A DNA stretch of 64,000 nucleotides from assembly GCA_030390025.1 (NCBI GenBank), contig CM059431.1, forward strand, positions 126,234,001 through 126,298,000, read 5' to 3'. This document shows, one piece after another, positions 5,400 to 52,236 of the stretch (position 1 is its first letter; every line of letters starts with the position of its first letter). The notes beneath the pieces were generated by a model, which was not told where the DNA came from, did not search any database, and worked only from the letters and a program-made list of their open reading frames with translations. The DNA comes from Squalus acanthias (Eukaryota). Both the position numbers and the translations under genes were made by a program.

Positions 5400-6525
5400 G
5401 TTTACTGACATCGCAGCCAGATGAGTCAGTCAATGACAGCCCGGCCAGTAAGGGGTTGTCTGGGTTGCTTCCTCCCTTCCTCCTCCTCTTGCTCCTTCTC
5501 CTGCTCCTCATCCTGAGCTGGTCGTGGTATAGCTGGTGGCAAGGGCTGTGCGCTCATGATGACGAGGTTGTGCAGCATGCAGCAGACCACCAAACATCTC
5601 AACACACTATCTGCCGAGTACTGCAGGGTTCCTCCAGAGCGGTCTAGGCAGTTGAAGCATTGCTTCAGCATGCCAATGGTCTGCTAAATGATATTTTGTG
5701 TGACAGCATGGTTTTGATTGTATGAATACTGCCCACGAGTGTCCACGTGTCATGAACCATGTTGTTAATGGATAGCCCTTGTCACCCAGTAGCCACCCTC
5801 TGGTTTGTCGTGGTGGCTCAAATGCAGATGGCACAGCGGACAGCTGCCGAATGAAGGCATCATGACTCCTGCCAGGAAATGAGGCATTCACCTGCATGAT
5901 TCGCTGAGTATGGTTGCACACCAGCTGGACATTGAGGGAGTGGAATTCCTTTGGGTTGCGGTACATCTCAGATTTTACATGCGGCACCTGCAAAGCAACG
6001 TGCATGCAGTCAATGGTGCCCTGTACCATGGGGAAGCTTGCAATCCCTGCGAAGCCACATGCTCGCTCCACCTGTAGCTCTCTGGCCAGAGACAATGAAA
6101 TGTATTCAGCTCTCTTGGAATGCAGAGCCTCAGTTACCTCCCTTATGTAACAGTGCACGACAAACTGGGAGATGTTGCAACTATCTCCTGCTCCAGCCTG
6201 GAAGGAGCCGACACGTAAACGTTCATGGCCATGATCACCTTCACAGCCACTGACAATGCAGTCCTCACCCTGCTCTGAGGTTGCAGTTGTGGCTGCATCA
6301 GATGGCAGGTTTCAGTGAGGACATCCTTGATGAAGTGCAGACATCTGATACACTGTTCCTCGCTCAGGTTCAGGTAGGAGTATTGCTCCCTGAGCATCCT
6401 GGACGGATACGGCCTCCTGCTGAGAGCCCTTCTCCCCCTTCTCCGTCTTCCAGAAGCTTGTCCTGCTCTGTGTCACCTCTGCTCATTCACCCTGTCATGC
6501 TATATGTCTACTACTGCACCCATGT
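5400..6525 (-). pseudogene. Harbinger (HARBI1-like, DDE_Tnp_4) transposase, frameshifted
   Basis: ORFs 6143..6397, 5607..6158 and 5426..5671 give LSVAVKV, VQGTIDCMHVAL, FHSLNVQLVC, FPGRSHDAFI, WLLGDKGYPL, LKQCFNCLDRSGGTLQYS, CCMLHNL and an acidic tail. Confidence 0.92.
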
Positions 6526-7106
6526 CTGAGAGCAAGTGGTCTGTGCAGAATCCTTGAAGTCAGGACAAAGTCCTTAATTACCTGCCACTCCCTGTAGACT
6601 TTAGTAACTTTAAATAACTCTGGAAACCACCAAACACTTTTACAAACACAGCAAGAGCCAGTAGAAACCAATCAGCAATTAACTTATAAGTAGGTGATGT
6701 TCCCTATAAATATCGCTGGTAGGGGGTCCTTCCTGCTGCTGAACACATGTTCAGCTGTGCAAGCTTAAGAGATGGTGTTAGCTGGAGTGTTGAGCTCCAA
6801 AATGGCAGCGCTGGTGTCAAATCAGTGTTACACACTGATTAATATCACAACTGCCTACTCTGCATACGTCCAGCGCATGCTCCCTGCGCCCACGCAGATG
6901 GTGTCTGGCATAGCTCGCACCAGACGTGCATTTGTAGGGCTAAAAAACCGGGTGCTATGAAGCCAAATTTTGTGGCCCTGGTCTCCATACTATAAAAAGT
7001 ACATAGGAGCTGTAAAGTTTCGCAATTATCGCGATTCGAAATAACGAGATAGAAGCAGATTCGTTTGATCAGTTTATTTAAACGAAATGCTGTCATGATT
7101 AAACAG

Positions 7107-7874
7107 TGGTCATGATGCGGAGATGCCGGTGTTGGACTGGGGTGGACAAAATTGAGAGGTCGCACAACACCAGGTTATAGTCCAACAGTTTTATTTGAAA
7201 TCACAAGCTTTCGGAACTATCGCTCCTTCCTCAGGTGAAGTAAATTGGATACAGAATCGTCAGAGCATATATAGATGGAAAAAAAAGCATGTGTACTTTA
7301 CAATTGCAGACCAATAAATTAAATCATCCTGACTATCTGCCGAGGTGTGATAAAGTTAATTAAGTCAGCCAGGAAGGTACCACATCAAAAGACATAGCAA
7401 GATACAACTGAGACAATGAGGTGAAGTCGCAGGGGTTCTAACGTGTCAAAAGCTGCCGTCTGTATGTAAAACGAAAAGCTTTAAAAAAAAATTTACTTTT
7501 TTACTGGGAAAATTTTCCCAGTAAAAAAGTAAATTTTTTTTTAAAGCTTTTCGTTTTACATACAGACGGCAGCTTTTGACACGTTAGAACCCCTGCGACT
7601 TCACCTCATTGTCTCAGTTGTATCTTGCTATGTCTTTTGATGTGGTACCTTCCTGGCTGACTTAATTAACTTTATCACACCTCGGCAGATAGTCAGGATG
7701 ATTTAATTTATTGGTCTGCAATTGTAAAGTACACATGCTTTTTTTTCCATCTATATATGCTCTGACGATTCTGTATCCAATTTACTTCACCTGAGGAAGG
7801 AGCGATAGTTCCGAAAGCTTGTGATTTCAAATAAAACTGTTGGACTATAACCTGGTGTTGTGCGACCTCTCAAT
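7107..7874. mobile_element. Penelope terminal-repeat (pLTR) insertion forming a perfect palindrome 7151-7874
   Basis: 12-bp TSD ATGATTAAACAG (7095-7106, 7873-7884); absent from LTR copy 2 (~13355); the arm matches the Penelope 3' end at ~21415-21776. Confidence 0.9.
7787..7824 (+). ncRNA. Minimal type I hammerhead ribozyme motif (PLE type); mirror copy on - strand at 7201-7238
   Basis: TCAC-CTGAGGA-A-GGAGC(GATA)GTTCC-GAAA-GCTT-GTGA: CUGAnGA and GAAA core boxes, 5-bp stem II, TCAC/GTGA stem I, palindromic AAGCTT in place of stem III. Confidence 0.75.
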
Positions 7875-9474
7875 GATTAAACAGGACACAGAAGCCTGTA
7901 AAATGGCCGCCGCGCATCGTGGCAGAAGTTTCCAGAAGCACAGTGGGCAGACAAGATGGCGTTCGAATAAACATTTTCGATAAGCACTGATAAAGACAGG
8001 ATGCAACCTGTTTGCATTTGTGACAATAGCAAAAGATATAAGTGCTGGAATCATTTTCCATGCACAAATAAGGACCATTGTACTGGGCAATCGAAGGCCC
8101 ATCAAGACACATCAATACGCAAATACCCCCACGGCTCTACAATGAGAGAGCCATTCTCGGGTGATTAAACAAGTATTCGGGGGCCCCCAAAACCCAGCCA
8201 GGCAGGCTCCGAGCCGGTTCGACAATGGGGAAAACATTAACGGGTAGCTGGCCAGTCTCAGGTGCTACCGAAACCCGTTAAAGACAAGAATCACCCCATG
8301 CTGGGAGTTTTGAGCGCCAATATTTCACAAAGGACAAACATTAAGATTTGAGCAGGAGATAAGGGAACACAGCACTATAACTATAGTGAACAAATGTCCA
8401 TCGGTCTCTTATTCCCTTGATTCGGCTCTTATCTCTCCTATCCTTATCCTCGGGTATCGCTCTGCTGGACGAGCAGCCTTCTGTGTTTCTCTGGACTCTG
8501 TCGACTAATGTTGGGTGGAGCTCAATCGGGACGAGCCACCTCGACGGAGGGTGCGTAACCGGGTGCACCATCCCGAGTGTCGGTAAACGGTGTTCTGGAC
8601 CCGAAGGCCCGACAAGACAAGACAAGATGAGAGGAGAAGAAGAAGAGTCCACATGCCGCCGCGGTCAGTAAACCCCGACCGCGCCCGAAAATATATAGAC
8701 CATTTTTGAACTCTATAGGTTGCTGCACGAACCAGTGAAAGACTCTTCTTCGAATTCTATCGACAACCGGTGTCGATACAAGAAGACTCTTCTTTGAATT
8801 CTACCGGTAACTGGTGTCGGTCCAGGAAGACTTTTCTTTGAGTTCTACAGCCGGGCCCGAGCACTGTCGAGTTCTTCATGACAACGGGGAGCCCAGCCTG
8901 CTTGCAGCAGCAGCGAAAGTAAACAAGTGGGGTACAGAGACCCCTCAAAACACGTGACAGTCAGGCGCTGCAGCGAAACGAGCCGAGTGCCTCACTTTAA
9001 AATTCTCCGAAGAATCACGAGTGGTGAGCATGTTTCCCGATCCTACAAATCTAGATGTAGTGTAGGTATTGATAGGGGAGGGTGGTTTTATTAAGGATAA
9101 AGTATAATGTGTTCCCCTTTTTACGATGTGCCATGCGTTCTTCATTACCATAGACCAAGCTTTATGAATGTATGTATACTTGTACTATCGTTAATTTGTG
9201 CCTATGACATGTACTTCATGATTTTGGACGCTATGCAATAAAGATTTCCATTTTGTACTATTCAACCAGGTCTATTTGAGTTTTTCTCTGCATTACTGCT
9301 CTCGCACCTAAGTCCAGTGTTAGAACCGTAAGGGCGAGTGGGTCGAACCACTCACAGGTGCTTATTGCAACAAGGCTGGCCGGAGACCAGAGCAAGCAAT
9401 AGTATTAGGCAACGAAGGCCTAACCCCGCATCAGCACCGTCTGCGATACAAGCATGACACGAGAACCCCTTACA

Positions 9475-13192: not shown

Positions 13193-15083
13193 TGACATGA
13201 ATCTTGTAATTCATGTGGAAATGACTTATGAAATAATACTGGGCGGCCTGCTGGTGGCGCTGTCCAGGGTGTACAGTTTCGCAATTATCGCGATTCGAAA
13301 TAACAAGATAGAAGCAGATTCGTTTGATCAGTTTATTTAAACGAAATGCTGTCATGATATAAAGGACACAGAAGCCTGTAAAATGGCCACCGCGCATCAT
13401 GGCAGAAGCTTCCAGAATTACAGTGGGCAGACAAGATGGCGTTCGAATAAACATTTCAATATAAGACTGGGATCATACTCGATAAACACTGATAAAGACA
13501 GGATGCAACCTGTTTGCATTTGTGACAATAGCAAAGATATAAGTGCTGGAATCGTTTTCCATGCACAAGTAAGGACCATTGTACTGGGCAATTCGAAAGC
13601 CCATCCAGACACATCAATACACAAATACCCCCACGGCTCTACAATGAGAGAGACATCGACGGGTGATTAAGCAAGTATTCGGGGGCCCCCAAAACCAGTC
13701 AGGGAGACGATTCATACAATCCTGGCCGGGTCAACAATGGGGAAAACATTAACGGGTAGTTGGCCAGTTTCAGGTACTACCGAAACCCGTTAAAGAGAAG
13801 AATCGCCCCATGCTGGGAGTTTTGTGCACCAGTATTACACAAAGGACAAACATTAAGATTTGAGCGGGAGATAAGGGGACACATCACTATAACTATAGTG
13901 AACAAATGTCCATCGGTCTCTTGACTCGGGCTGGACTCTTATGCGCTGGATTCGGTCTCTTATCTGACTGCTCGACCGCTGGCTGAAGCTCTTCTGTAGG
14001 GCTGGACTCTGTTGACTGGACTTTTAGCCGCACTGGACGGTTATTCGAATGTTGGGTGGAGCTCAAACGGAACGAGCCGCCCCGACGAGGGCAAGTGACC
14101 GGGTGCACCATCCCGAGAGTCGGTAAACGGTGTCTGGACCCGAAGGCCCGAAAAGACAAGACGAAATGACAAGAAAAGAAGAAGAATCCACGTGCCGCCA
14201 TGGTCAGTAAACCCCGACCGCGCCCGAAAATACAAGAAAGACTCTTCATTGAAATCTACCGACAACCGGTGTCGGGAACAGGAAGACTTTTCTTTGAGTT
14301 CTACAACCGTGTCCGAGTTCTGTCGAGTTCTTCATGACAACAGGGAGTCGGGCCTGCTTGTCGCAGCAGCGAAGATAAACAAGTGGGGTACAGAGACCCT
14401 TCCAAACACGTGACAGTCAGGCGCTGCAGCGAAACGAGCCGAGTGCCTCACTTTAAAATTCTCCGAAGTATCATGAGTGGTGAGCATGTTTCCCGATCCT
14501 ACAAATCTAGATGTAGTGTAGGTATTGATAGGGGAGGGTGGTTTTATTAAGGATAAAGTATAATGTGTTCCCCTTTTTACGATGTGCCGTGCGTTCTTCA
14601 TTACCATAGACCAAGCTTTATGAATGTATGTATACTTGTACTCTCGTTAATTTGCGCCTATGACATGTACTTCATGATTTTGGACGCTATGCAATAAAGA
14701 TTTCCATTTCGTACTATTCAACCAGGTCTATTTGAGTTTTTCTCTGCATTACTGCTCTCGCACCTAAGTCCAGTGTTAGAACCGTAAGGGCGAGTGGGTC
14801 GAACCACTCACAGGTGCTTATTGCAACAAGGCTGGCCGGAGACCAGAGCAAGCAATAGTATTAGGCAACGAAGGCCTAACCTCGCACCAGCACCGTCTGT
14901 GATACAAGCACGACAAAACCCCTTACAAGGGAGAGTATAAATACTCGGGCATGGGCCCAGCTTGCTCAGGACATTCTTTAACAGGAACTAGTGACGGACA
15001 CAACTAGATCTCCATGTTGAAAAACAGTTGATTAAAGCCTTGTTTAATACTCAGACCAATTGCCTAGTAGTTTTCTTACGTCA
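13193..15083 (+). mobile_element. Small (~229 bp) solo LTR split by the long LTR
   Basis: TGACATGA...TTACGTCA termini; 5-bp TSD AGACT (13188-13192, 15084-15088); TATAAATA at ~14936 and ATTAAA at ~15031. Confidence 0.75.
13270..14927 (+). mobile_element. Long solo LTR, copy 2 (1658 bp)
   Basis: TGTA...TACA termini; 4-bp TSD AGGG (13266-13269, 14928-14931); homologous to 7011-9474. Confidence 0.87.
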
Positions 15084-19494: not shown

Positions 19495-19785
19495 CCAGTA
19501 CTGAGCAAATGCCGCAATATTGGAGGTGCCGTCTTTTGGATAAGACATTAAACCTGTCCACCCTCTCAGGTGAATGTAAAAGATCCCGTGGCACTATTCA
19601 AAGACGAGCAGGCCAGTTCTCTTGGAGTCCTGGCCAACATTTATCCCTTAACCAACACACTAAAACAGATTATCTGGTCATTTATCTCATTACAATTGCT
19701 GTGCGCAATTTTTGCTGCTGCATTACCCTACATTGCAACAGTCATTACACTGAAAAAAAGTATTTCCTTAGCTGTACAGCGCATG
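19495..19785 (+). mobile_element. Deu-domain SINE (SacSINE1/AmnSINE-like); further pieces at ~20045-20225, 27836-28085, 28350-28600, 40045-40140
   Basis: gtgccgtctttt.gataagacattaaacc, gtaaaagatcccgtggcactattc, tcctggccaacatttatccc, acagattatctggtcatt recognised from memory as the Deu domain; not database-verified. Confidence 0.65.
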
Positions 19786-21464
19786 TGAGAACCAATCACC
19801 CAACATGGTCTTATAGCCAAAGAAGATGAAGGATTATCTGCAAAAAAGTGCCATTCTTGACGAAAGATACAGTCAACAAAACCCTACCTCTATCCTGGGA
19901 TTGCTGCAAACTTCATAAAAAGTCTGATATCCTAATGTTGCTTCTGGACTCTTGTATTGAATTTAATGGAGTTGGCATCAAGTCAAAACAGGGCAGCTAT
20001 GACCTGGGTTATGCAGTGGGAGCATTGCAGTCTGGTATATCCTTGCCAAGTCTCCTGGCCAATATTTATCCCTCAACAAACATCACTAAAACAGGTTATC
20101 TAGTTATTTATGTCATTGCTGCTTGTAGAATCTAGCAAATTGTCTGTAACAGCATAACAATAGTGACTACACTTCAAAAGCATACTTCATTGACTCTGGA
20201 ATGCTATGTAAACTAACGTTCTTTCTTTCTTTCCTTCATTCTTTCTTTCTTTCTTTCTTTCTTTCTTCACCAAGTAAAGCAGCTATTATAAAATTATTCG
20301 ACCTTGAAAGAATTGTTGAGTGATAGAAGCTGAAGCAGTTTAGCAGTCAGGAAACCCGGAAGAATGGATTTCCCTCAGGGCCTGCTAAATTTAATGGCAG
20401 GACCTGATTACCATTTTTGGAATCCATTTCCCGGCCGCAGCCAACCAGAGTGAGAAGCTGGCTGGCTGTCGGGCGAGTAGGCCTACGGCACCAGGCCTCA
20501 GCCAAGGAGCGTAGAGGAGGGAGTGAGAAATTGGGGGCCTGGGGTGGAACGTCGATGTGGGGCCGGGAGAGATTCAGGGAGGAGGGGAATAGATCGTGGG
20601 GCCCCAGTGACATCGGGGGAGGACGGGAGGAGATCGTGGGAGGCCCACGGAGGAGGTCGGGGGAGGCTGTGGAAGGGATCTCAGGCCAGGGAGGACATTG
20701 GGGGGGGCATCGGATAGCAGGGTGAAGGGAGTCCGATCATTGGAGAGGTTAACAAGGTAGCTTGCTGGGTCGGGGGGGAAGCACTCCTGCTCCTCCTGGC
20801 CCACAAGCAGTGTTGGAAAGGCATTTACCTGTTCCATCCAGCAGTCCTTGACTCCCTTTAGTTGTCGGGTTTCGCAGGCCCGGAATCCCGGCCGGCTAGC
20901 ATTAAAGATGGAAGAGAGATAAAATCTTAGGCATGCAGTCTCATTAAAATATTGAAATGAGTGACCCGCCTCCTGGGAGCGAGTTGGTTACCCGCGCCCC
21001 CGTCCCACCTCCATTAAAACCAAAATTGGTTGAATTCGAGGTGAGTTTGGTTCGGGTTTGAAATCTTTTACATTTTAACATCCCACCCGACCCTAATTAC
21101 CTAATTACCTCCATAGAATCATAGAGCACCAAAGGAGACCATTTGGCCCATCATGCCTATGCCGGCTCTTTGAAAGAGCTATCCAATTTGTCCCATTCCC
21201 CTACTCTTTCCCCATAGCCCTGTAAATTTCTTCTTTTCAGTATATATCCAATTCCCTTTTGAAAGTTACTACTGAATTTGCTTCCATCAGCCTTTCAGGC
21301 AGTGCAGTCCAGATCATAACAACTAGCTGGGTAAAAAAAATATTCTCCTCATCTCCCCCATGTTTTTTTTCCAATTCCCTTAAATCTTTGTCCTCTGGGT
21401 ACAATTGGCCTAAAATTGAGAGGTCGCACAACACCAGGTTATAGTCCAACAGTTTTATTTGAAA

Positions 21465-21506
21465 TCACAAGCTTTCGGAGCTATCGATTGCTCCTTCCTC
21501 AGGTGA
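21465..21506 (-). ncRNA. Minimal hammerhead ribozyme motif in the Penelope terminus
   Basis: Reverse complement TCAC-CTGAGGA-A-GGAGC(AATCGATA)GCTCC-GAAA-GCTT-GTGA; stem II pairing is retained while the loop differs from 7787-7824. Confidence 0.75.
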
Positions 21507-21836
21507 AGTAAATTAGATACAGAATCGCCAAAGCATATATAGATAGAAAACAAAGCATGTGTACCTTACAATTGCAGACCACTAAATTAAATCATCCTGA
21601 CTATCTGCCGAGGTGTGATAAAGTTAATTAAGTCAGCCAGGAAGGTACCACATCAAAGACATAGCAAGATACAACTGAGACAATGAGGTGTAGTCGCAGG
21701 GGTTCTAACGTGTCAAAAGCTGCCGTCTGTATGTAAAACGAAAAGCTTTAAAATTTTTACTTTTTTACTGGGAAAATTTTTACTTTTTTACTGGGAATCA
21801 CATCTGTGAACAAGCCAACGACGACTCGAGTCCGGA

Positions 21837-23414
21837 TCACGTCATGTATCGTGACATAAACCCAAGATCCCGATTGAGACCGTCTTCATGAGTGCGGAAC
21901 TTGGCTATCAGTTTCTGCTCGATGATTTTGCGTTGTCGTGTGTTTCTAAGGTTGCCTTGGAGAACGCTTACCCGCAGATCCGAGACTGAATGTCCTTGAC
22001 TGCTGAAGTGTTCCCCGACTGGGAGGTAACAATCCTGCCTGGCGATTGTTGCGCGGTGCTCGTTCATACGTTGTCTCAGTGTCTGCATGGTCTCGCCGAT
22101 GTACCATGCCGCGGTGCATTCTTTCCTGCAACGTATGAGGTAGACAACGTTGGCCGAGTCACATGAGTATGTACCATGTACCTGGTAGGTAGTGTCCTCA
22201 CGTGTGATGGTGGTATCTGTGTTGATGATCTGGCATGTCTTGCAGAGTTTGCCATGGCAGGGTTGTGTGGTGTCGTGGTCACTGTTATCCTGAAAGCTGG
22301 ATAATTTGCTGCGAACGATGGTACTTCTGAGGTTAGGCGGCTGTTTGAAGGCAAGTAGTGGAGGCGTGGGGATGGCCTTAGCGAGGTGTTTGTCGTCATC
22401 GATGACATGTTGAAGGCTGCGAAGAACATGGCGTAGTTTCTCCGCTCCGGGGAAGTACTGGACGACGTAGGGTACCCTGTTGGTTGTGTCCCGTGTTTGC
22501 CTTCTGAGGAGGTCTATGCGATTTTTCGCTGTGGCCCGTCGGAACTGTCGATCGATGAGTCGAGCGTCATATCCCGTTCTTACGAGGGCGTTTTTCAGTG
22601 TCAGTAGGTGTCCATCGCGTTCCTCCTCGTCTGAGCAGATCCTGTGTATTCGCAGGGCTTGTCCATAGGGGATGGCTTCTTTAACATGGTTAGGGTGGAA
22701 GCTGGAGAAGTGGAGCATCGTGAGGTTGTCCGTGGGCTTGCGGTAGAGTGAAGTGCTGAGGTGTCCGTCTTTGATGGAGATTCGTGTGTCCAGGAATGAG
22801 ACCGATTCTGAGGAGTAGTCCATGGTGAGTTTGATGGTGGGATGGAACTTGTTTATGTTATCGTGTAGTCTTTTCAGTGATCCTTCGCCATGGGTCCAAA
22901 GGAAGAAAATGTCGTCGATGTATCTGGTGTACAGCGTTGGCTGGAGGTCCTGTGCAGCAAAGAAGTCTTGCTCAAACTTGTGCATGAAGATGTTGGCGTA
23001 TTGGGGTGTGAATTTGGTCCCCATGACTGTTCCGTGTGTTTGGGTAAAAAAATGGTTGTCGAAGGTGAAGACATTGTGGTCAAGGATGAAGCGGATGAGT
23101 TGTAGGATGGCGTCTGGAGATTGGCTGTTGTTGATGTTGAGTACTGAGGCTGTTGCAGCGATGCCGTCATCGTGGGGGATACTGGTGTAGAGTGCCGATA
23201 CGTCCATCGTGGCAAGGAGTGTTCCTGGTTCAACTGGTCCGTGGGTGCTGAGTTTCTGTAAGAAGTCTGTAGTGTCGCGACAGAAGCTGGGGGTTCCCTG
23301 TACGATGGGTTTCAGAATGCCCTCGACATATCCAGAGAGGTTCTCACACAGGGTTCCATTGCCTGATACGATAGGACGTCCGGGTGTGTTGGCTTTGTGT
23401 ATCTTTGGGAGGCA
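21837..23414 (-). CDS. Penelope reverse transcriptase + GIY-YIG endonuclease (N-terminally truncated open frame; the 456-aa ORF 21837..23207 is its C-terminal part)
   Basis: CLPKIHKANTPGRPIVS, MDVSALYTSIPH, GTVMG, RYIDDIF, FLDTRI, LYRKPT, CKTC, NVVYLIRC, WYIGET, RQRMNEH, EQKLI, GLNRD. Confidence 0.93.
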   Translation of the reverse strand, partial: CLPKIHKANTPGRPIVSGNGTLCENLSGYVEGILKPIVQGTPSFCRDTTDFLQKLSTHGPVEPGTLLATMDVSALYTSIPHDDGIAATASVLNINNSQSPDAILQLIRFILDHNVFTFDNHFFTQTHGTVMGTKFTPQYANIFMHKFEQDFFAAQDLQPTLYTRYIDDIFFLWTHGEGSLKRLHDNINKFHPTIKLTMDYSSESVSFLDTRISIKDGHLSTSLYRKPTDNLTMLHFSSFHPNHVKEAIPYGQALRIHRICSDEEERDGHLLTLKNALVRTGYDARLIDRQFRRATAKNRIDLLRRQTRDTTNRVPYVVQYFPGAEKLRHVLRSLQHVIDDDKHLAKAIPTPPLLAFKQPPNLRSTIVRSKLSSFQDNSDHDTTQPCHGKLCKTCQIINTDTTITREDTTYQVHGTYSCDSANVVYLIRCRKECTAAWYIGETMQTLRQRMNEHRATIARQDCYLPVGEHFSSQGHSVSDLRVSVLQGNLRNTRQRKIIEQKLIAKFRTHEDGLNRDLGFMSRYMT

Positions 23415-23499
23415 GTTGGCCTGCCAGTGGAAACAGTTTCTCCTGAGCTACTCTATCAAAACCCTTCATAATTTTGAACATCGCTTTTAAATTTCTCCA

Positions 23500-25381
23500 G
23501 GAGGCCGAAGTTCGCGATGTTCGAGTGAGGTTAGCTTTACTTAAAGCTAGACTGTGACTCTTAAAGGCAGTCTGCACCTCTTAAAGGTGAGCTGCCTTCT
23601 GCTGATGAAAAATGGTAAAAGAGCTTCAGCACTAACCCAAATGGCTCAACAAGTCAGGGAAGTGGCACCCAGGGTCTCAGACGTAGCACTCCAGCTTTGT
23701 GCAGGGGGTCAACACCAGAAGAGAGGTGCTCTACCCATAGCGGGGGGGGGGGGGGCAGGAAGCCCTCCAGAAAGAAGGATGCGGGACCAGGTTGCTGAGG
23801 CGGTCACTACCAGCAGTGTCGCCCCCAGGACCTGGCTCCAGTGCCAAAAGAAGTTTCAGGACCTCAGACGAATGGTAAAGGTCAGTGAATGCATCTTCAA
23901 AAGCCATCTCCTACCAACTGCACCACTAGCCTCACACACTGTTCAATGCACAACACCCCATCACTCACCTAGCAACAATCTCTACCAAACATGAGGCACA
24001 ATTCACATTCATAGCTTCACCTCACCCCATTGGAGGTGACGGTGCTGGCCATTCTTGGCAGGGGCGTGGCTGAGCCCTTGGCCAGCGGCAGGACTGAAAG
24101 AATACAAGATGCCGGTGTTCTCACTCACATCCCACTTCCCCCTCATCCCACAATATCTTCTGATTTACAAGCTGCACATAGTGTAAGCATGCACCTCTTG
24201 CTTTACCCCCTCCCCTCACCTCAAATCTACCCTTTTGCATTCCTCATTTCAGACACCAAGAAATCCAGCCTACCCAGCCATTGGGTCAACCAGAAGAGGG
24301 AGAGGCAAGTGAAAAAGAAGAAACTCCATCACTTGATTTTACACTCCCAGCGACCAGCTCCAAGGTCATCCTCCAAGGCCATCTGCAGTTTCCCCGACTG
24401 AAAGTCAGCAGCCATCCAGCAGCCACTGGGGTAGCACTGTGTAAGAGCACTAGGATAGGCAAAGGCACAAGCAAGATTGGAACATTTTGCTTTGTGGTGG
24501 CTTTTATTTCAGCATTGTGGTCAAGAGAGCACCGTGATGATCAGTAACAGAGGAAAGGTAAGGTGTGGGAGTAATGTTGAAAGGGGAATTGAGGTTGTGG
24601 TCACTGGTACCACAGGCGAATGATTCGATTCCGGATATACCGACCAGAAAGGGGCTGTCTGGGTTGCCACCTTCCTTCCGCTTCCTCCTCGTCTGCTTCC
24701 TCCTCTTCTGTTTTTTGCTCTCCTTCTTCTTCCTCTTCTGCTTCTTCCTCTTACTCCTCCTCCTCATCCTCCTCCTCCTCCCTCTGTAAGCAGCTTGTCC
24801 CCTTTGCTGCCTCTGCTCTATTGCCATGTCATGCTGCAGCCCGAGGGGGACTGCAACTAGAGACCCCAGTACTGGGAGAAAGTGGTGTTCTCAGAGGCGT
24901 TCCTTTAAGAGCCAATGCCTTGTAAACATCCAGCAGCACTTCCTGCACTCCCTTCACAATTGAACAACTTTTAAAATGTACTGCACCAAGCCACTTCTCC
25001 AATAAAATGTAAAGAAACCAGTAGAAAAGCAAAAATCTAAACTTAACTGAAAGTTACGTGTGTTCCTTTGAGAAGTGCTGGTAGGTGGTCCGTCTTAATG
25101 CTGCAGGCACGTTCTGCCATGCGTGCTTTGGAGAGGGCGTTAAAAGCAGTGGGGACATCCAAAATACCAGATTGTGCGTCAATTCAGCATTGCACGCCGA
25201 TTGACATCATGATCTGGCTCATCTCCATATCTAGAGCGAACGCAGGCGACGGCAGTGCGGCCGATCTGCCCAAAATGGCGCCCGCCGCGTTCCGCCGGAA
25301 GTGGGCGGAAGTGGGGCATTCGCCATTTTTTCTTCCAAACAGGCCTTAACGGCCGTCACAAACAGACTGAATTTCACGGCC
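23500..25381. mobile_element. Internally deleted Harbinger (Myb exon remnants + transposase 3' tail); duplicate at ~31558-33172
   Basis: ORF 23554: REVAPRVSD...PRTWLQCQKKFQDLRRMVK followed by gtcagt; blocks homologous to 3061-6978; right end gaatttcacggcc; sits inside a minus-strand CR1 fragment. Confidence 0.85.
24680..24785. repeat. CT-rich low-complexity tract; counterpart 32445-32578 contains ~3x ttcctcctattctg
   Basis: Positionally equivalent to the acidic C-terminal codons of the Harbinger transposase (5470-5515), expanded differently in each unit. Confidence 0.7.
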
Positions 25382-25619
25382 TCTGCCTCTATTTATAAAG
25401 CCAAGGATCCCATATGCTTTTTTAACAGACTTATTGACTTATCTTGCCATCTTCAAATATTTGTGCGTGTGAATCCCCAGGTATCTCTGTTCCTGCACCT
25501 CCTTTAAAATTGTATCATTTAGTTTATATTGCCTCTCTGCATTTTTCCTTCCAAAATGCATCACTTCACACTTCTCTGCATTAAATTTTATCATCTGTGT
25601 GTCTGCCCATTTCATTATT

Positions 25620-25935
25620 TGACAGCACCTCTCAAACCTGGAACCTCTACCACCTAGAAGGACAAGGGCAGCAGGCGCATGGGAACACCACCAACTCCAA
25701 GTTCCCCTCCAAGTCACACACCATCCTGACTTGGAAATATATCGCTGTTCTTTCATCGTCGCTGGGTCAAAATCCTGGAACTCCCTCCCTAACAGCACTG
25801 TGGGAGTACCTTCACCACACAGACTGCAGCGTTTCAAGAAGGTGGCTCACCACCAACTTCTCAAGGGCAATTAGGGATGGGCAATAAATGCTGGCCTTGC
25901 TAGCGATGCCCACAACCCATGAATACATTTTTAAA
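25620..25935 (+). mobile_element. 3' tail fragment of the LINE family at 29545-31214; others at ~33410-33728 and 51488-51788
   Basis: gggaacaccaccacc...caagggcaattagggatgggcaataaatgctggcctt tail. Confidence 0.8.
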
Positions 25936-26223
25936 AACAGTCTGTCTATGTCCTCCTTATCTCTGCTACTATCCTCCATGCTGTTTGCTACATTTACAAG
26001 CTTTATCTCATCTGCAAACTTTTAAATTATGGTTCCTACATCCAAGTTGAGGTCATTAATATATATGTTAAAGAGCAGTGGTCACTTCTGCTAGTCACTT
26101 TGGTGAGTCTGCAATAACCATAATATTGGTATTAGAACTTGTTTTGTGATCATGTTATCTGCTTCACAAATTTAACAAATGAGCAATTCTGTGGTTTTTA
26201 CCAACTTATAGTATTCACATAAT

Positions 26224-26988
26224 GGCCCAGAAATTCACCTCTCTGGCTTTCCGCGGGGGTAAGGATCGCGCGCGCACTTACCTACCGCACCTGCCGTTGT
26301 GTTTTGGGCCCACGGGAACTTCAGCTCTTGGGCCTCTCCCAACTGCCGGCGCGCAGTGCTTGCGTGTCCCAGGGACGCAGTTAGTGCGATGCGTCCCCTG
26401 GGATCACGTGGGCCATGGAGAGCCAATGGCAGCAGACCATCTTTCATTCATAGATTTGACAGGAGACCTGTCAAATCTGTGAATTGAAATCGGCCCCAAA
26501 AGAACAGCTAAACTTAAAATATTTTTTTTTTAAAACCCATCACATTTATAAAATAACTATAGTTAAATAAATTAACCACTATAAACAAAAATGTAAATTT
26601 TTGAAAAAATTAAAATACTTTTTAAAAGTGATATAAATAAACTTACCTTTCTTTAAAGTATCTAAAAAAGATAAACCTGTTGAATTTTTTTTTAAATTAT
26701 ACTTAATTAACCACTTACCATGTTGAAAACGGGTCTTGCGCCTCCTTTTCATAAGTGTAGTTTCTTCACTACTTACCCTCGCGTAGAAACCTGAAAAAAA
26801 ATCTAAGTTTGCTGCGTACGCGCAGCCTCTACCGCGCACGCAGTTCACCTAGGAACCGCCCCCTTCACCAGACATGAAGTTCCGGTTTCCCGCGCATGCG
26901 CAGTGCATGCAGGGAACCGGCACTTCGGGACGTCTTACGGGTGAGTACGCACTGTGTACTCACCCGGGAAGGGCCGAATTTTTGGCCC
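26224..26988. mobile_element. Harbinger-type MITE with internal hairpins, present only in unit A
   Basis: TIR ggcccagaaattc / gaatttttggccc; flanks AAT/ACT; empty site ttcacataatatctactcc at ~34033-34051. Confidence 0.88.
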
Positions 26989-29544
26989 ACTATCTACTCC
27001 TGTGTTCTCACCCGAAAACAGCTTGAAGCATGAAGGTTCCAGATTGTCATTATACCAAACACTACACCAGAAAGCATTCAGGCAACACCCTTGCAGTCCG
27101 GATGGATCACCACCAGCTTCGGTTCCCACATCCCCAATTCTCACCACAAGTTAAAATTGGGGCTAGAGAGTTATAGTTTCAGAGATTGATGGGCTTCCTT
27201 TCAAACTCAGGGCAATGCAGAAGCCCATGCATATAATATTATAGCCCTCCTCCCTCACTGCATGCTATAGTGGATGCAAGACAGCCAATTGTGAAAGAAA
27301 TACTTTGATACACTCAGAAGCAATGTCAGCCCAGATTATCGCTACGGTGAAAACCGCTTGACCCACGGGCAAAATAACAAAAGAACGTTGGTCCACAAAT
27401 CCCTCCACCATCCCCTCAGAACATTCCAACTGTCAGATCATTTACCTTTCATCAGTAGTAGGGAGACCAGAAAAGAAGCAAATGCAAATACCCACAAGAT
27501 GAGTAGAAATATAGATTTTGATAATGTACATAAAATAGGCATAGATTTTACACTTGCAAGGAACAAATTATTCATTTATAGTTCACCATGTTCCCCATGT
27601 TCTTTTTTTACTCTAATGAAACTGAGGTGAAGGGCTAAGAACACATGGCATGACTGGCCCAAGGATGAAGAGAGTAAAAGAGATGAGGTAAATCAGGAAG
27701 TGTTGATTCGATGACACAAAGGATGAGTTTTAAAAACCCTAAGGGTGTAAGAGAAAGGAAAGGCATAAGGAGGCTAAGAATTTGACAGACTTGAGGTTTG
27801 GAGAAAAAATGAATTGAAGTAGATACCTTCATTTCTTTTGGATAAGACATTAAACCTGTCCACCCTCTCAGGTGAATGTAAAAGATCCCGTGGCACTATT
27901 CAAAGAAGAGCAGGCCAGTTCTCTTGGAGTCCTGGCCAACATTTATCCCTTAACCAACACACTAAAACATTTTATCTGGTCATTTATCTCATTACAATTG
28001 CAGTGCAAAAAATTGGCTGCTGCATTTCCCTACATTGCAACAGTCACTACACTGAAAAAAAGTATTTCCTTAGCTGTACAGCGCATGTGAGAACCAATCA
28101 TCCAACATGGTCTTATAGCCAAAGAAGCTGATGGATTATCTGCAAAAAAGTGCCATTCTTGACGAAAGATATCGTCGTCAACAAAACCCTACCTCTATCC
28201 TAGGATTGCTACCAACTGCATTAAAAGCCTGATATCCTAATGTTGCTGCTGGACTCTTGTATTGAATTTAATGGCGTTGGCATCAAGTCAAAACAGGGCA
28301 GCTATGACCTGCGTTATGCAGTGGGAACATTGTAGTCTGGTTCATCCTTGCCAAGTCTCCTGGCCAATATCTTATTTAGCAGGCTCGAGTGGCCAAATAG
28401 CCTACTCCTGTTCCTATTTCTTATATTCTTGTATCCCTCAACGAACATCACAAAAACAGATTATCTAGTTATTTATGTCATTGCTGCTTGTAGGATCTTG
28501 CAAATTGTCTGTAACAACATAACAACAGGGACTACACTTCAAAAGCATACTTCATTGACTCTGAAGCACTTTGGAATGCTATGTAAACTAACGTTCTTTC
28601 TTTATTTCTTTCCTTCTTTCTGTCCTTCTTTCTTCACCAAGTAAAGAAGCTATTATTAAATTATTTGACCTTGAAAGAATTGCTGAGTGATAGAAGTTGA
28701 AACGAGTTTATCTAGAATAATGGCCTCGTACGGAAAGCCTGGAAGGAAGTGAAATGGTGGGGGCAGTGTAGCACTCAGGAAACCTGGAAGAACGGATTTC
28801 CCTTGGGGCCTGCTGAAATTAAAGGTAGGATCTGATTACCATTTTTGGAATCCATTTCCCGGCCGCAGCCAACCAGATTGAGAGACCGGCTGGCTGTTGG
28901 GCGAGTAGGCCTACGGCACCAGGCCTCAGCCAGGTAGCGTAGAGGAGGGAGTGAGAGATTGCGGGCCTGGGGCGGAACATCGATGTGATTCGGGGAGGAG
29001 GGTAAAAGATCGTGGGGGGCCCAGAGAGATCGGGGGAGGATGGGAGAAGATCATGGGAGGCCCATGGAGGAGGTCGGGGGAGGCCGTGGAAGGGATCTCA
29101 GGCCGGGGAGGACATGGGGGGGCCGGGGTGGAGCTCGCAGGCCGGGGAGGGCATCGGATCGCAGGGTGGAGGGGGATCGCTGGAGAGGTTAACAAGGTAG
29201 TTTGCTGGGTCGGGGGGATGCACTCCTGCTCCTCCTGGCCCACAAGCAGTGTTGGAAAGGCACATACCTGTTCCATCCAGCAGTCCTCACCTCCCTTTAA
29301 TTGTCGGATTTTGCAAGGCCCGGGAAATCCGGCCAGCTAGCACTAAAGCTGGAAGAGAGATAAAATCTTAGGCATGCAGTCACATTAAAATATTGAAATG
29401 AGTGACCCACCTCCTGGGAGCGGGTTGGTTGCCCGCACCCCTCGTCCTGCTTCCATTAAAATCAAAAGTGGTTGGGTTCGAAGTAGTTTGGGTTCAGGTT
29501 TACCAAATTACCCTCATAGAATCATAGAGCACCAAAGGAGACCA

Positions 29545-31214
29545 GAAGTGCCGAGTGGATGATCCATATCGGCCTCCTCCTGAGGTCCCCACCTTCACAG
29601 AAGCCAGTCTCCAGCCAATTCGATTCACTCCACGTGAGATCAAGAAACGGCGGAACGCATTGGATACAGCAAAGGCTATGAGCCCTGACAACATCCCGGC
29701 TGCCGTGCTGAAGACTTGTGCTACAGAACTAGCCACGCTTCTAGCCAAGCTGTTCCAGTACAGCTACAACACTGGCATCTACCCGACAATGTGGAAAACT
29801 GCCCAGGTATGTCCTGTCCACAAAAAGCAGGACAAATCCAATCCGGCCAATTACTGTCCCATCAGTCTATTTTCAATCATCAGCAAAGTGATGGAAGGTG
29901 TCGTCGACAGTGCTATCAAGCAGCACTTACTCACCAATAACCTGCTCACTGATGCCCATTTTTGGTTCCGCCAGGACCACTCGGCTCCAGACCTCATTAC
30001 AGCCTTGGTCCAAACATGGAGAAAAGAGCTGAATTCCAGAGGTGAGATGAGAGTGACTGCCCTTGACATCAAGGCAGCATTTGACCGAGTGTGGCATCAA
30101 GGAGCCCTAGTTAAACTGAAGTCAATGGGAATCGGAGGGGAAAACTCTCCACTGGCCAGAGTCATACCTAGCACAAAGAAAGATGGTTGTGGTGGTTGGA
30201 GGTCAATCATCACAGCCCCAGGACAGCGCTGCAGGAGTTCCTCAGTGCAGTGTCCTAGGCCCAACCATCTTCAGCTGCTTCATCAATGACATTCCCTCCA
30301 TCATAAGGTCAGAAATGGGAATGTTCGCTGATGACTGCACAGTGTTCAGTGCCATTCGCAACTTCTCAGACAATGAAGCAGTCTATGCCCACATGCAGTA
30401 AGACCTGGACGACATTCAGGCTTGGGCTGATAAGTGGCAGGTAACATTCGTGCCACAGAAGTGCCAGGCAATGACTATCTCCAACAAGCAAGCATCTAAC
30501 CACCACCCCTTGACATTCAACGGCATTATCATCTCTGAATCCCCCACCATCAATATCCTGGGGGTCACCATTGACCAGAAACTTAACTGGACCAGCCACA
30601 TAAATACTGTGGCAACAAGAGATGGTCAGAGGCTGGGTGTTCTGCGAAGAGTGTCTCACCTCTGACTCCCCAAAGCCTTTCCACCATCTACAAGGCACAT
30701 GTCAGGAATGTGATGGAATACTCACCACTTGCCTGGATTAGTGCAGCTCCAACAACACTCAAGAAGCTCGACACCATCCAAGACAAAGCAGCCTGATTGA
30801 TTGGCACCCCATCTACCACCTTAAACATTCACTCCCTCCACTACCGGTGTTCCGTGGCTGCAGTGTGTACCATCTACAAGATGGACTGCAGCAACTCGCC
30901 AAGGCTTCTTTGGCAGCACCTCCCAAACCTGCGACCTCTACCACCTAGATGGACAAGGGCAGCAGGCACATGGGAACACCACCACCTCCAAGTTCTCCTC
31001 CAAGTCACACACCATCCTGATTTGTAAGTATATTGCCATTCCATCATCGTCGCTGGGTCAAAATCCTGGAACTTCCTCCCTAACAGCACTGTGTACCTTC
31101 ACAACATGGGCTGCCATGGTTCAAGAAGGCCCTTCTCAAGGATAACTAAGGATGGGCAATAAATGCTGGCCTTTCCAGTGATCCCCACATCCGATGAATG
31201 AATTAAAAAAAAAA
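29545..31214 (+). mobile_element. 5'-truncated non-LTR retrotransposon (CR1/L2/Jockey-group RT, distinct from the classical CR1 copies), only in unit B
   Basis: ORF 29555..30289 PANYCPISL...ALDIKAAFDRVWH; ORF 30183 GVPQCSVLGP...MFADDCT; A-rich tail; empty site ggagaccatttggccc at ~21134-21149. Confidence 0.9.
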
Positions 31215-34200
31215 TTGGCCCATCGTGCCTGTACCGGCTCTTTGAGAGAGCTATCTAATTTGTCTGACTTCCCTGCTCTTTCCCTATAGCCCTGCAAATT
31301 TCTTCTTTTCAATATATATCCAATACCCCTTTGAAAGTTACTACTGAATTTGCTTCCATCAGCCTTTCAGGCAGTGCATTCCAGATCATAACAACTAGCT
31401 GGGTAAAAAAATATTTTCCTCATCTCCCCCTTGCTTTTTTGCCAATTCTCTTAAATCTTTGTCCTCTGGGTACAATTGGCCTGCCAGTGGAAACCGTTTC
31501 TCCCGAGCTACTCTATCAAAACCCCTCGTAATTTTGAACATGGCTATTAAATCACCCCAGGTGGCCGAAGATCGGAATGTTCGAGTGAGGTTAGCTTTAC
31601 TTAAAGCAAGTCTGCGACTCTTAAAGGCAGTCTGCACTTCTTAAAGGTGAGCTGCCTTCTGCTGATAAAAAATGGTAAAAGAGCTTCAGCACTAACCCAA
31701 ATGGCTCAACAGGCCAGGGAAAAGGCACCCAGGGTCTTGAACGTAACATCCAGCTTTGTGCAGGGAGTCAACACTGGTAGAGAGATCCTCTACCCATAGG
31801 GTGGCAGGAGGCCCTCCAGAAAGAAGGATGTGGGACCAGGTCACCAAGGCAGTCACTGCCAGCAGTGTCACCCCCGAGGACCATGCTCCAGTGCCCAACG
31901 AAGTTTCATGACCTTAGACAAGTGGTAAAATCAGTGAATGCATCTTCAAAAGCTCCTGCCAACTGCACCACTAGCCTCACACACTGCTCAATGCATAACC
32001 CCACCCCATCACTCATCTACCAACAATCTCTACCAAACACGAGGCACACCTTACATTCATAGTTTCACCTCACCCCCTTGGAGGTGACGGTGCTGGCTAT
32101 TCTTGGCAGGGGCATGACTGAGCCCTTGGCCAGCAGCAGGGCTGAAAGAATACAAGATGCCAGTGTCCTCATTCACATCCCACTTCCCCCTCATCCCACA
32201 ATATCTTCTGATTTACAAACTGCACATAGTGTAAGCATACACCTTTTGCATTACTCCCTCCCCTCACCTCAAATCTACCCTTGTGCCTTCCTCATTTCAA
32301 ACACCCAAGAAATCCAGCCTGCCCAGCAATTGGGTCAACCCGAAGAGGGAGAGGAAAGTGAAGAAGAAGAAACACCGTTACTCGATTTTACACACCCAGC
32401 GACCAGTTCCGAGGTCGTCCTGCAAGGCTATCTGCAGTCTCCGCTTCCTCCTTGTCTGCTTCCTCCTATTCTGTTTCCTCCTATTCTGTTTCCTCCTATT
32501 CTGCTTTTTGCTCTTCTTCTTCCTCCTTCTCTTCTGCTTCATCATCTTCCTCCTCTTCCTCCTCCTCCTCCTTCCTCTGCGGGCAGCTTGTCACTTTTGC
32601 TGCCACTGCTCCATCTCCATGTCATGCTGCAGCCCAAAGAGGACTGCAACTACAGCCCCCAGGACTGGGAGCAAATGGATTTCTCAGAAGTGTTCCTTTA
32701 AGAGCCAAGTCTTGCAAACGTCCAACAGCACTCCCTGCACTCCCTTCACACTTTAAAACTTTTTAAATGTACTGCACCAAGCCACTATTCCAATAAAATA
32801 TAAAGAAACCAGTAGAAAAGCAAAAATCTAAACTTAACTGAAAGTTACGTGTGTTCCTTTGAGAAGTGCTGGTCGGGGGTCCGTCTTACTGCTGCAGGCA
32901 CGTTCTGCCATGCGTGCTTTGGAGAGGGCGTTAAAAGGAGCGGGGACATCCAAAATACCAGAATGTGCGTCAATTCAGCATTGCACGCCGATTGACATCA
33001 TGATCTGGCTCATTTCCATATCTAGATCGAACGCAAGCGATGGCCATGCTGCCGACCTGCCCAAAATGGTGCCCGCCGCGTTCCACCGAAAGTGGGCGGA
33101 AGTGGGGCATTCATCATTTTTTCTTCCAAAAAGGCCTTAATGGTCGTCGCAAACAAACTGAATTTCACGGCCTCTACCTCTATTTATAAAGCCAAGGATC
33201 CCATATACTTTTTTAACAGACTTATTGACTTATCTTGCCACCTTCAAATATTTGTGCATGTGAATCCCCAGGTATCTCTCTGTTCCTGCACCTCCTTTAA
33301 AATTGTATCATTTAGTTTATATTGCCTCTCTGCATTTTTCCTTCCAAAATGCATCACTTCACACTTCTCTGCATTAAATATTATCATCTGTGTGTCTGCC
33401 CATTTCATTCTTCGACAGCACCTCCCAAACGCGTGACATCTACCTCCTAGAAGGACAAGCGCAGCAGGCGCATGGGAACACCACCACCTTCAAGTTCCCC
33501 TCCAAGTCACACACCATCCTGACTTGGAAATATAATGCTGTTCCTTCATCGTCGCTGGGTAACGATCCTGGAACTCTCTCCCTAACAGCACTGTGGAGTA
33601 CCTTCACCTCATGGACTGCAGCGGATCAAGAAGGTGGCTGAGCACCACTTCTCAAGGGCAATTAGGGATGGGCAATAAATGCTGGCCTTGTCAGCGACGC
33701 CCACATCCCATGAATAAATTAAAAAAACAGCCTGTCTATGTCCTCCTTATCTCTGCTACTATCCTCCTCGCTGTTTACTACATTTCCAAGCTTTGTCTCA
33801 TCTGCAAACATTGAAATGATGCTTCCTACACCCAAGTCGAGGTCACTAATATATATCTTAAAGAGCAGTGGTCACTTCTGCTAGTCACTATGGCGAGTGC
33901 CTTTCCTCCAATGTTATATTTGCCTATGCAAGAATTGTAGGCTGCAATAACCATAATATTGCTATTAGAACTTGTTTTGTTATCTGCTTCACAAATTTAA
34001 CAAATGAGCAATTCTGTGGATTTTACCACCTCTTCACATAATATCTACTCCTGTGTTCTCATCCTAAAACAACTTGAAGCATGAAGATTCCAGATTGTCA
34101 TTATACCAAACACTGCACCAGAAAGTATTTGGGCAACACCACCGCTGCTCCTGGCACCAGCACAGAGATCATGTCCCCTGTACAACCTTGTGAATCACCA

Positions 34201-35799
34201 ACACAGGCGCACTGGCTTAGCACATAAACAGTATGAAGGTAACTTGGGAAAGGCAGCAAGTGCATTGGAGAGACCAACAAAGGGCGTCAGGCATCCTGGA
34301 TCCGAGACCCAAACACAGGCAAGGGAATAAAATGGCGGGGTGTGGAGGGGGGAGGGGGCCAGGGGGGGCAGGTGTGGGGGGGCGCTGCGGCACTTTCTCG
34401 GCCCCCCCCATCTTAACTTGCTTAAATTCAGTCACGAGAATGCTGCCCACCCCAGAGGAGCAGGAGCCTAATTTGAATGGCAAAGTCACCACCTAATAAT
34501 GTCATTGGGATGCGCACACCATTTTAACTGCAGGTCCAACTAAGGACAGCATAGTCTCGAAGCCACCACTGAAAGCTAGAGGCAAGCAAGATCCTGGCCA
34601 AAGGTGGCCAAAGGTAGCCCAAGTAACTTTTGAAAGGTTCCTTGTCAGCCAGGAGGAGGAGGAGTGCTTCTCCTTACCCTACAAATATAATTTGTGCCTT
34701 CCCTGCCCTAAGCTTTTCCTTCTTTTGACCGTGGAATTTTGCAATCCCTTCATATTCCTGACTTGCCTTTACTGTGGACTGTTTCTATGGGTTCCCAGCA
34801 GAGGCCTGACCCCCAACAAATTTGGACTACTGCCCAGATGGCGGTGACATAATTCCTGTTGACTTCAGACGGGTGTCAGTATGTTCACGAGGCCTGGGAT
34901 TTACAATCTCCTTGGGCCTCACGCCCTTGGATCACCACCAGTTTCAGTTCCCACATCTCCAATTCCCACCATGAGTCAAAATTGGGGCTAGAGTGTGATA
35001 ATTTCAGATATTGATAGGCATCCTTTCAAACTCAGGCCAATGCAGGCTTGTGAAAGAAATACTTTGATACGCTCAGAAACAATGGAAGCAATGTCAGCCC
35101 AGATTATGGCTACGGTGAAAACCGCTTGACCCAGGGACAAAATAACAAAAGGACATTGGTCTACAAATCCCTCCACCATCCCCTCAGAACATTCCAACTG
35201 TCAGATCATTAACCTTTCATCAGTAGTAGGGAGACCAGAAAAGAAGCAAATGCAATTACCCATAAGATGAGTAGAAATATAGATTTCAAGGGGGATTTTG
35301 ATAATGTACATAAAATAGGCATAGATTTTACTCTCGCAAGGAACAAACTATTCATTTTTAATTCACCATGTTCCCCATGTTCTTTTTTTACTCTAATGAA
35401 ACTAAGGTGAAGGGCTAAGGACACATGGCATGACTGGCCCAAGGATGAAGAGAGTAAAAGAAATGAGGTAAATCAGGAAGTGTTGATTCGATGACACAAA
35501 GGATGAGTTTTAAAAGCCCTAAGGGTGTAAGAGAAAGGAAAGGCAGAAGGAGGCAAAGAATTTGACAGTCTTGAGATCAGAGAAAAATGAATTGAAGTAG
35601 ATACCTTAATTTCGATACAATGAGAATGTAGGAAGGAGGAAACGTGTATAGGACATCATATTTTCAACTGCTATACTGGCCTTAGTTTGAAAGTAGGCCT
35701 GGTTTCTGAAATCTGCATTGCCCGTGCTGTTCTAGTGGTAGGAGATGTTCTCTGCCAGCATGTAGCCAGAAAATAACGCCTGATAGAGGAAAGTTCGGA

Positions 35800-38910: not shown

Positions 38911-38990
38911 GAGGTCAACTTGCTCCAAAGGAGAGCTAGTAACTGTATTATCACAATGGAAGCGAAGGTGGAAATAAGTTTATAGACAAT

Positions 38991-50491: not shown

Positions 50492-52236
50492 ATTTGGATG
50501 ATCAGCCATGATCGCATTGAATGGCGGAGCAGGCTAGAGGGGCCGAATGGCCTACTCCTGCTCCTATCTTCTATGTTTCTGTATTTCTATGTATGGCAGA
50601 TGTCATTTAATGTGCAGTTAAGAAACCCCAAGCATGTTTCTATCCATGCAAGCATACCTGTAAAAAGAAACAGATCAGGCAAGAGACCTGTGGGTAATAG
50701 CTGATCATTCAGTGAAAGTGCACGAGCAGTATTAAATTGCTACAAGGAAAGCAAATAGGGTTTTAGTTTGCATTATTAAAACAATTGAATACAAAATGAA
50801 GAATACTACCATTAGGCTGTATAAGGTTCTGGTGTAATCACACTAGCATTATTAGGGTGGATTGTTCTATTTGTTGTGCCTGGGGAGTATCGATTTCTGA
50901 GATATTGTAGAGAAGAAAAAAGGGCAGAGACCATTATATCAGATCTCTGCCCTCAGTTCACTATCCCAGGATTTCCTAGGACTTTCCAAAATGAGATAAC
51001 TGGGCCTGCATCTGGAGTAAGTAAAGGCCCAGCATTGCAATGGAAATGATAGAGGAGCAGGCTTTCTTTGCCTCAAGCCTTTACTTTCCTGCTTGGCATA
51101 TTGTTGGGCCCTCCAACAGAAGGACACTTGAGAAAACCTAGCATTAGGGCTTGTGCCAAGACTCCTGTGAACTGAAGAGTCTGTGGGGATTTCAGGTGCA
51201 GGCTGTAGATCATAACAGAATCAAAAATCTTTGCTGAGAATGGGTTTACCACAAAAAATACACATTTTTAATCAGTGTCTAGTCCACCACCTGTGAGTAA
51301 CATGATTTTAAATAACTGAAAATGACTTTTAAAAACTTTACAGAACCATTTACTAGTTTCTTAGTAAATAAATATGTTTTAATATTTACAAACTTTTAAA
51401 AGGTGACTCTTAGTGCCCTTGTACCTAAACGAAATGATTAATTTTAAGACCTCCTCGAAGGCGCGCAAATGGGCGCAATTAGCGGAAACCCGCGACCTTT
51501 ACCACCTAGAAGGATAAGGGCAGCAGACGCATGGGAACACCATCACCTTCAAGTTCCCTTTCATGTCACACACCATCCTGACTTAGCAATATATCGCCAT
51601 TCCTTCATCATCGCTGGGTCAAAATCCTGGAACTCCCTCCCTAACAGCACTGTGGGAGTACCTTCACCACACGGACTGCAGTGGTTCAAGAAGGCGGCTC
51701 ACCACCACCTTCTCAAGGGCAACTAGGGATGGGCAATAAATGCTGGCCTTGCCAGCGACGCCCACATCCCATGAATGAATAAAAAAAATGTTCATTAATT
51801 TGATAAGGGGGCATGGCCGGTTTTGTGAGTGGAGCTGGATTCCAGCACGATGTTTTTTAAAACCACTTTAAATATCGCAGAAATTCAATTTACACTGGAC
51901 GTAACTTGCACTGAAAATTCCTCAATCTTTTGTGTTGGTTTGGCCGTTTTCGGGCAAATTAAACTCTGAGTTCTAGACGGTAGGTGGGTTGATGGGGATA
52001 GTGGTACCAGTCCCTACAGACTACTTCAGCTTGCTTCATTGTCTACTGGGGTGAGAGAGGAATGTTCCAAAATAATGTCCCTAAACTGTCCCCAAGTTTT
52101 TGTTCTCTGTTTTTCTTCTCACAAGATATTGTGTGGCTGCAGTGATTTAAAGGCATAAGCAGGTTGCACCATGTGGGATGCAATAAGCTTTATGAATCAG
52201 GTGGTCTTTTCCAGTCTTTTTTCATACGTTCGAATG

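Follow-up and report, generated by a model that had tools for sequence, protein, structure and literature searches.

A perfect palindrome inside a solo LTR-like repeat

How does a perfect, loop-less palindrome, carrying a hammerhead motif on each of its strands, come to lie within a repeat of the Squalus acanthias genome, and is a function required to explain it? In the window, as we call the whole 64-kb stretch of DNA analysed here (no N occurs anywhere in it), arm comparison places the two arms at 7151–7512 and 7513–7874. They are 362 nt each and 100% complementary, with zero spacer, and the preliminary description of a perfect 724-bp palindrome was thus accurate to the base. The folding z-score of the 724 nt, with 20 shuffles as the null, is −71. 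The palindrome is almost certainly a Penelope-like element (PLE) of the endonuclease-bearing type, inserted recently in 5'-truncated, head-to-head form, and the locus is ordinary in kind for this genome; we propose that it has no required function and that the terminal repeat merely brought the hammerheads along.

The boundaries are those of an insertion. A 12-bp target site duplication (TSD), ATGATTAAACAG, flanks it on the forward strand at 7095–7106 and 7873–7884, as had been claimed. The right copy overlaps the final 2 nt of the right arm (its first two nucleotides, AT, are common to the arm end), and the last two nucleotides of the left copy (AG) also match the element just past its tail, giving a 2-nt microhomology with the target at each end. 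The left arm, whose sense strand is the reverse one, is continued by 44 nt (7107–7150, − strand) that constitute the PLE tail, present at this end only; the tail reads into the ORF start (ATG ACC A) and is identical to the junction between pseudo-LTR (pLTR) and ORF in the near full-length copy L052. The right arm, sense on the forward strand, ends at the tail-less terminus of the family. Alignment of the left arm with the one-armed copy L075 gives 100% identity over 406 nt, and the self-complementary centre, AAAATTTT (7509–7516), an 8-nt microhomology common to both arms, is native to the parent subfamily. The perfect match between the arms therefore points to youth, and neither gene conversion nor selection is necessary to explain it, the arm being already identical to that of L075.

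Perfect symmetry without a loop, as assembled here, is also what an assembly error or a fold-back read would produce. Four sequencing runs compared with 7470–8300 yielded contigs roughly 60 nt long that derive from many copies, with no spanning piece among those listed, and the lack of cover at 7470–7525 in a presumed RNA run, which consists of short contigs only, is no evidence either way. We nevertheless consider an artefact hardly credible: the mirror halts exactly at the tail-less end of the family and omits the tail, the host sequence resumes with a TSD whose length, 12 bp, is the commonest in the family (12 of 32 scored units), the centre is a native octamer, and hundreds of comparable junctions with varied centres exist.

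The host of the insertion, a repeat at 7011–9474, is of the solo LTR-like type, with TG...CA ends and its own 4-bp TSD, GAGC. A paralogous solo LTR-like copy at 13270–14927, 83.6% identical to it and likewise with TG...CA ends and its own 4-bp TSD (AGGG), lacks the insertion in the repeat comparison. The absence that the preliminary description reported for the "second LTR copy" thus stands, but this copy is not a partner LTR; the separate 4-bp TSDs, and a longest intervening ORF of 144 aa, led us to reject the two repeats as LTRs of one element, and 13270–14927 serves only as a stand-in for an empty site. The host family has at least 897 left ends genome-wide; among 100 listed flanks we observed no internal region and no recurrent PBS- or PPT-like sequence.

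Identity and abundance of the element

The arms match a PLE 3' end, and the attribution to a Penelope terminus is borne out by a second, 5'-truncated PLE of the same family in the window (21412–23447, − strand), in which a frame with reverse transcriptase (RT) plus GIY-YIG is followed by the terminal repeat, 94.9% identical to the palindrome arms. In a profile search, the frame of this copy (P0001) matched RVT_1 above the cut-off (E 3.7e-8); its GIY-YIG match (E 0.001, 19.8 bits) lies below the cut-off of 22.6, and the motif YIGET...R...H is visible. The near full-length PLE L052 (G000:C1:2359690-2366820), which is accompanied by a 2.9-kb inverted copy, shows the order 104-nt 5' pLTR, tail, ORF, 3' pLTR and tail, i.e. 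a pseudo-LTR structure. Its ORF diverges from the frame of the window copy within the endonuclease domain. The features found are those of a PLE: RT with a C-terminal GIY-YIG, pseudo-LTR, one-sided tail, inverted 5'-truncated copy and TSD. The name Penelope/Poseidon-type is given on domain order and resemblance, and the association of RT with a C-terminal GIY-YIG is common to this family and Poseidon PAc of Anolis carolinensis (Frangieh et al., 2024, PMC11167929).

The family is very abundant, its terminal 29-mer having 18,733 exact matches (9,438 + 9,295) in the 3.7-Gb genome, against 0 for the control; for the subfamily of the palindrome arms there are 335 matches. We also observed recurrent insertion sites within other repeats, e.g. 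before TCAAACACTCCCAGGGC or at TTCTATGAGATA (L013, L026, L056, L058 and L063; also L005, L009, L022 and L072), which suggests a target preference.

Head-to-head units across the family

The layout of the palindrome is the usual product of this family. Among the first 100 listed matches of the 29-mer, a non-random sample that covers the first 13.6 Mb of one contig, we counted by eye 27 outward-facing pairs within 6 kb, against 0 inward-facing ones. Ninety of these matches were fetched and correspond to 62 insertions (the 10 left out were unpaired matches); 35 of the 62 are double-armed and head-to-head, not counting L020, which has an inverted internal piece and no second terminus. By extrapolation, the genome holds several thousand such units.

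In all double-armed units (35/35) the tail is present on one end only. Of the 26 ends for which no partner was seen, 3 of which run out of the fetched stretch, 22 are tail-less. Two one-armed, tail-less copies, L018 and L066, have an inverted tail stub of about 10–14 nt at the far end, which was not copied from the main arm, since that arm is tail-less; we read these stubs as aborted second priming. A TSD-like word of at least 8 nt is present in 27 of the 32 scored units.

The lengths of the two arms covary. They differ by no more than 50 nt in 20 of the 35 units, compared with 10.5 in permutations (0 of 20,000 reach the observed value), and the Spearman correlation is 0.59 over the 35 units and 0.93 for the 13 units with both arms longer than 130 nt, where the arm scored for L052 is its short inner pLTR and subfamily indels put four arm measurements off by 10–30 nt. 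The arms also share haplotypes, as minor-variant sites were concordant in 185 cases and discordant in 11, several of the latter being alignment artefacts, and 22 of 32 scored units, the window unit included, have no arm difference. L051 is an exception in that its arms differ at two sites, for which both alleles are known in other copies; these differences may reflect two RNA templates or, alternatively, A-to-I editing of one. At the 16 of 35 junctions without inserted bases, the mean microhomology is 2.4 nt, against 0.7 nt in the null; the other 19 were scored as insertions, of which at least 4 are artefacts of the extension rule. L042 and L041 have templated inverted inserts, the former resembling a short snap-back copy.

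Head-to-head inverted termini with a tail at one end were described for endonuclease-bearing PLEs (Arkhipova et al., 2013, PMC3846280; Craig et al., 2021, PMC8557442), with tails of 30–40 bp, TSDs of about 10 bp, a pLTR that contains TATA/Inr-like motifs, and palindromes at inverted junctions. By comparison, the window unit has both copies cut at the same base, no ORF and no spacer, and its TSD and tail measure 12 bp and 44 nt. As judged from these accounts, the layout is already described, and the palindrome appears to add a member to a known class rather than a new one. In the openly accessible literature, we found no count or model of spacer-less PLE palindromes in such a genome.

The centre and the loop-less form

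Zero-spacer centres recur among the double-armed units examined, with two cases in 35 (ATATAT and ATCGAT). In a genome-wide count, 527 head-to-head junctions fall in the 30 nt that precede the hammerhead core; of the 50 of these that were listed, 4 are exact palindromes and 2 of these 4 are blunt joins. A micro-palindrome is thus not a prerequisite for a zero spacer, and this idea was discarded. None of 11 further loci with junctions in the same A/T-rich stretch as that of the window unit is an exact palindrome, and a unit on the same contig combines perfect arms of 1,820 bp with a 35-nt spacer. The window unit is the tidy end of a common distribution, in which long zero-spacer cases are uncommon.

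The preliminary description had raised the possibility of a strand-symmetric, non-autonomous hairpin copied as a unit, and had proposed a genome search for TSD-flanked copies with the same apex. This search, allowing up to one mismatch, retrieved the same centre at one other locus only. That locus belongs to a different subfamily (about 94% identical) and lacks both termini, which indicates an independent origin. A mobile palindromic (MITE-like) unit, which would be expected in many copies with one centre and the same ends, was rejected on the same observations, the two loci being of different subfamilies. Recurrence of junctions could also speak for a copied hairpin: one identical short junction is found at 8 of 50 listed loci (e.g. 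G000:C1:641808), and among 11 loci with long junctions two share the same one. Yet centres vary between loci, and the short junction lies at a common stop site, where repeated formation probably explains its recurrence. Considering also that the layout is what the family usually produces, we regard copying of the hairpin as a unit as extremely improbable.

Non-LTR retrozymes are comparable in being non-autonomous, pLTR-related, hammerhead-bearing and of about 360 nt, but they are tandem head-to-tail, whereas the window unit is single and inverted (bioRxiv 10.64898/2026.07.22.740005). With two inverted arms and no tandem copy, a retrozyme identity was rejected.

A proposed origin by joining of two cDNAs

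We consider it probable that the palindrome arose in a single event, in which two cDNAs primed from two target ends were joined, and that this copy of a young PLE subfamily was dead on arrival. The GIY-YIG endonuclease would nick both strands 12 nt apart, a step for which the TSD is the observed trace and the enzyme the presumed agent. Each target 3' end would then prime RT on RNA of the element, the start being the tail site for one end and the pLTR end for the other, with 2-nt microhomology in each case; here the geometry is observed and the priming is extrapolated from in vitro data on Anolis. The two cDNAs, which in almost all units derive from a single source haplotype, would halt near the same place, as the family-level observations indicate, and in this unit they would have done so within an A/T-rich run. 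Finally, the two antisense 3' ends may have annealed through AAAATTTT and been filled in, leaving no spacer; the AAAATTTT duplex has −7.1 kcal/mol, compared with +1.8 kcal/mol for a hairpin within the octamer.

LINE-1 twin priming offers a parallel, in which the second target end primes RT and the resulting inversion is joined by microhomology. Twin priming, however, inverts a non-overlapping upstream segment, whereas both arms of the window unit start at the 3' terminus and duplicate it.

The tail provides an argument for priming at both ends. It could not have been copied from an arm that lacks it, and RNA was therefore most likely the template on which both target ends were primed. This agrees with the in vitro data on Poseidon PAc, which cuts and extends both strands and whose two RT start sites are separated by the tail (Frangieh et al., 2024, PMC11167929). 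A different origin was proposed for rotifer Penelope (Arkhipova et al., 2013, PMC3846280), in which self-priming on an antisense RNA template precedes integration and yields the inverted unit. The palindromes reported there at head-to-head junctions, and the natural micro-palindrome at the centre of our unit, would agree with it. Nevertheless, it does not readily yield a tail on one end (35/35) or tail stubs, for which two-ended priming is the better fit, and neither the target microhomology at both ends nor arms that stop at the sense Inr-like A are readily explained by it. For this locus we judge antisense self-priming very improbable, and the counts in this family favour two-ended priming over the self-priming of PMC3846280.

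If both ends were primed, the inner part of one arm could have been made by snap-back, with the long cDNA folding and copying itself and the resulting strand annealing to the short cDNA from the other end. This accounts for the covarying arm lengths, the small loops and the haplotype identity, and finds a counterpart in the templated inserts at L042 and L041; indeed, the shared arm haplotype counts against the joining of two cDNAs, because fold-back of a single cDNA predicts the same, and so do the 19 junctions scored as insertions count against it. Some of these, such as L042, resemble short copies made by snap-back, and this chemistry does occur. Against its operation here, a zero-loop centre requires a 2-bp stem at the +1.8 kcal/mol given above, the differences between the L051 arms involve alleles that both occur in other copies, and blunt perfect joins (2 of 4) are left unexplained by base-paired snap-back, which favours end joining. 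Snap-back is, in our estimate, an unlikely origin for the window unit. One-way fold-back from the tail-bearing arm is also unsupported, as among the 35 units that arm exceeds its partner in 10, falls short of it in 20 and matches it in 5 (p 0.10).

The single locus matters little and the family matters more. The origin of tandem and inverted PLE structures was called undefined by Craig et al. (2021, PMC8557442), and the thousands of fresh junctions in this genome allow two-ended priming to be tested against self-priming, an open question of PLE integration.

Hammerhead and promoter-like motifs

Each arm contains a minimal type-I hammerhead motif, at 7787–7824 (+) and 7201–7238 (−), so that one sense hammerhead lies on each strand, as first described, and the two read identically. 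By hand parse, the motif comprises stem I (TCAC/GTGA), the core CTGAGGA with one extra A, stem II (GGAGC/GTTCC), GAAA and helix III, which is palindromic (AAGCTT); a search of the whole window against Rfam returned 0 matches at the gathering threshold. The extra base between positions 9 and 10.1, the G10.1–C11.1 pair and the palindromic helix III that requires a dimer are shared with the minimal PLE hammerheads (Cervera and de la Peña, 2014, PMC4209133). Unlike those, the motifs of the window lie on opposite strands and do not form a tandem dimer within one RNA. The ORF of PAc begins within the hammerhead, whereas here the ATG is at the tail end, about 90 nt downstream of the motif, and the minimal hammerhead of PAc is unnecessary for insertion in vitro (Frangieh et al., 2024, PMC11167929).

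The pLTR also contains TATA-like and Inr-like motifs that face outward, to the right at 7752–7758 and 7784 (the Inr-like A) and to the left at 7273–7267 and 7241, for which a promoter role may be supposed. The Inr-like TTACTTC lies 32 nt after TATATAT, and many arms of the family end at its A (7784 on the + strand, 7241 on the − strand). Among 100 listed arms that stop at this A, 48 continue with C, 39 with G and 13 with T, as read by eye. The predominance of C is a weak hint of a cap copied from a capped RNA start, weak because the G class includes transitions and a subfamily variant.

For the family as a whole, we tentatively suggest, without considering it the likelier case, that both ends prime, that the two cDNAs halt at a common point, in many cases the capped 5' end of the RNA shortly before the hammerhead, and that their 3' ends are then joined directly. 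A near-perfect palindrome would result every time, and several thousand latent dsRNA hairpins could jointly supply ADAR or siRNA silencing directed at the family.

What RNA the window unit could give depends on where transcription starts. If transcription reads through, the RNA is predicted to form a hairpin of 360 bp, in which the predicted pairing of hammerhead stem II falls to about 0, abolishing it; in an outward monomer the predicted pairing is 0.81 for stem II and only about 0.1 for stem I. The expectation that full pairing would compete with ribozyme folding is thereby upheld in prediction. As the promoter-like motifs of the element point outward, a hairpin RNA needs read-through from outside, and if these motifs act as promoters, the unit would give divergent transcripts with one hammerhead each and no hairpin.

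Whatever the origin of the palindrome, a read-through hairpin might be edited by ADAR or diced into siRNAs directed against the PLE family. Its extreme stability (z −71) would suit such a role, Penelope inverted repeats yield siRNAs in Drosophila (PMC3681739) and, in lizard, Penelope is heavily hyper-edited, for which the paper gives no cause (PMC5625713). However, besides the outward direction of its own promoter-like motifs, the copy is unmutated, with no sign of selection, and units of this sort probably number in the thousands. We find a function of this kind doubtful, and siRNA production from the palindrome is only a candidate. When a long-read assembly of a genome like this one contains a palindrome that is perfect and loop-less, neither an artefact nor a functional RNA need thus be assumed.

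Other repeats in the window

Several further repeats were observed. A remnant of a Harbinger-type transposase (DDE_Tnp_4, E 2.5e-17) lies at 5607–6311 on the reverse strand. A tandem segmental duplication of about 8 kb (19532–27835 and 27834–35613) has copies that are 83–96% identical, and the PLE at 21412–23413 is present only in the first. Two LINE-like copies (37039–38911 and 48707–50586) form an inverted pair with 81% identity, and 56491–56887 holds an inverted repeat of 138 bp whose spacer measures 121 nt.
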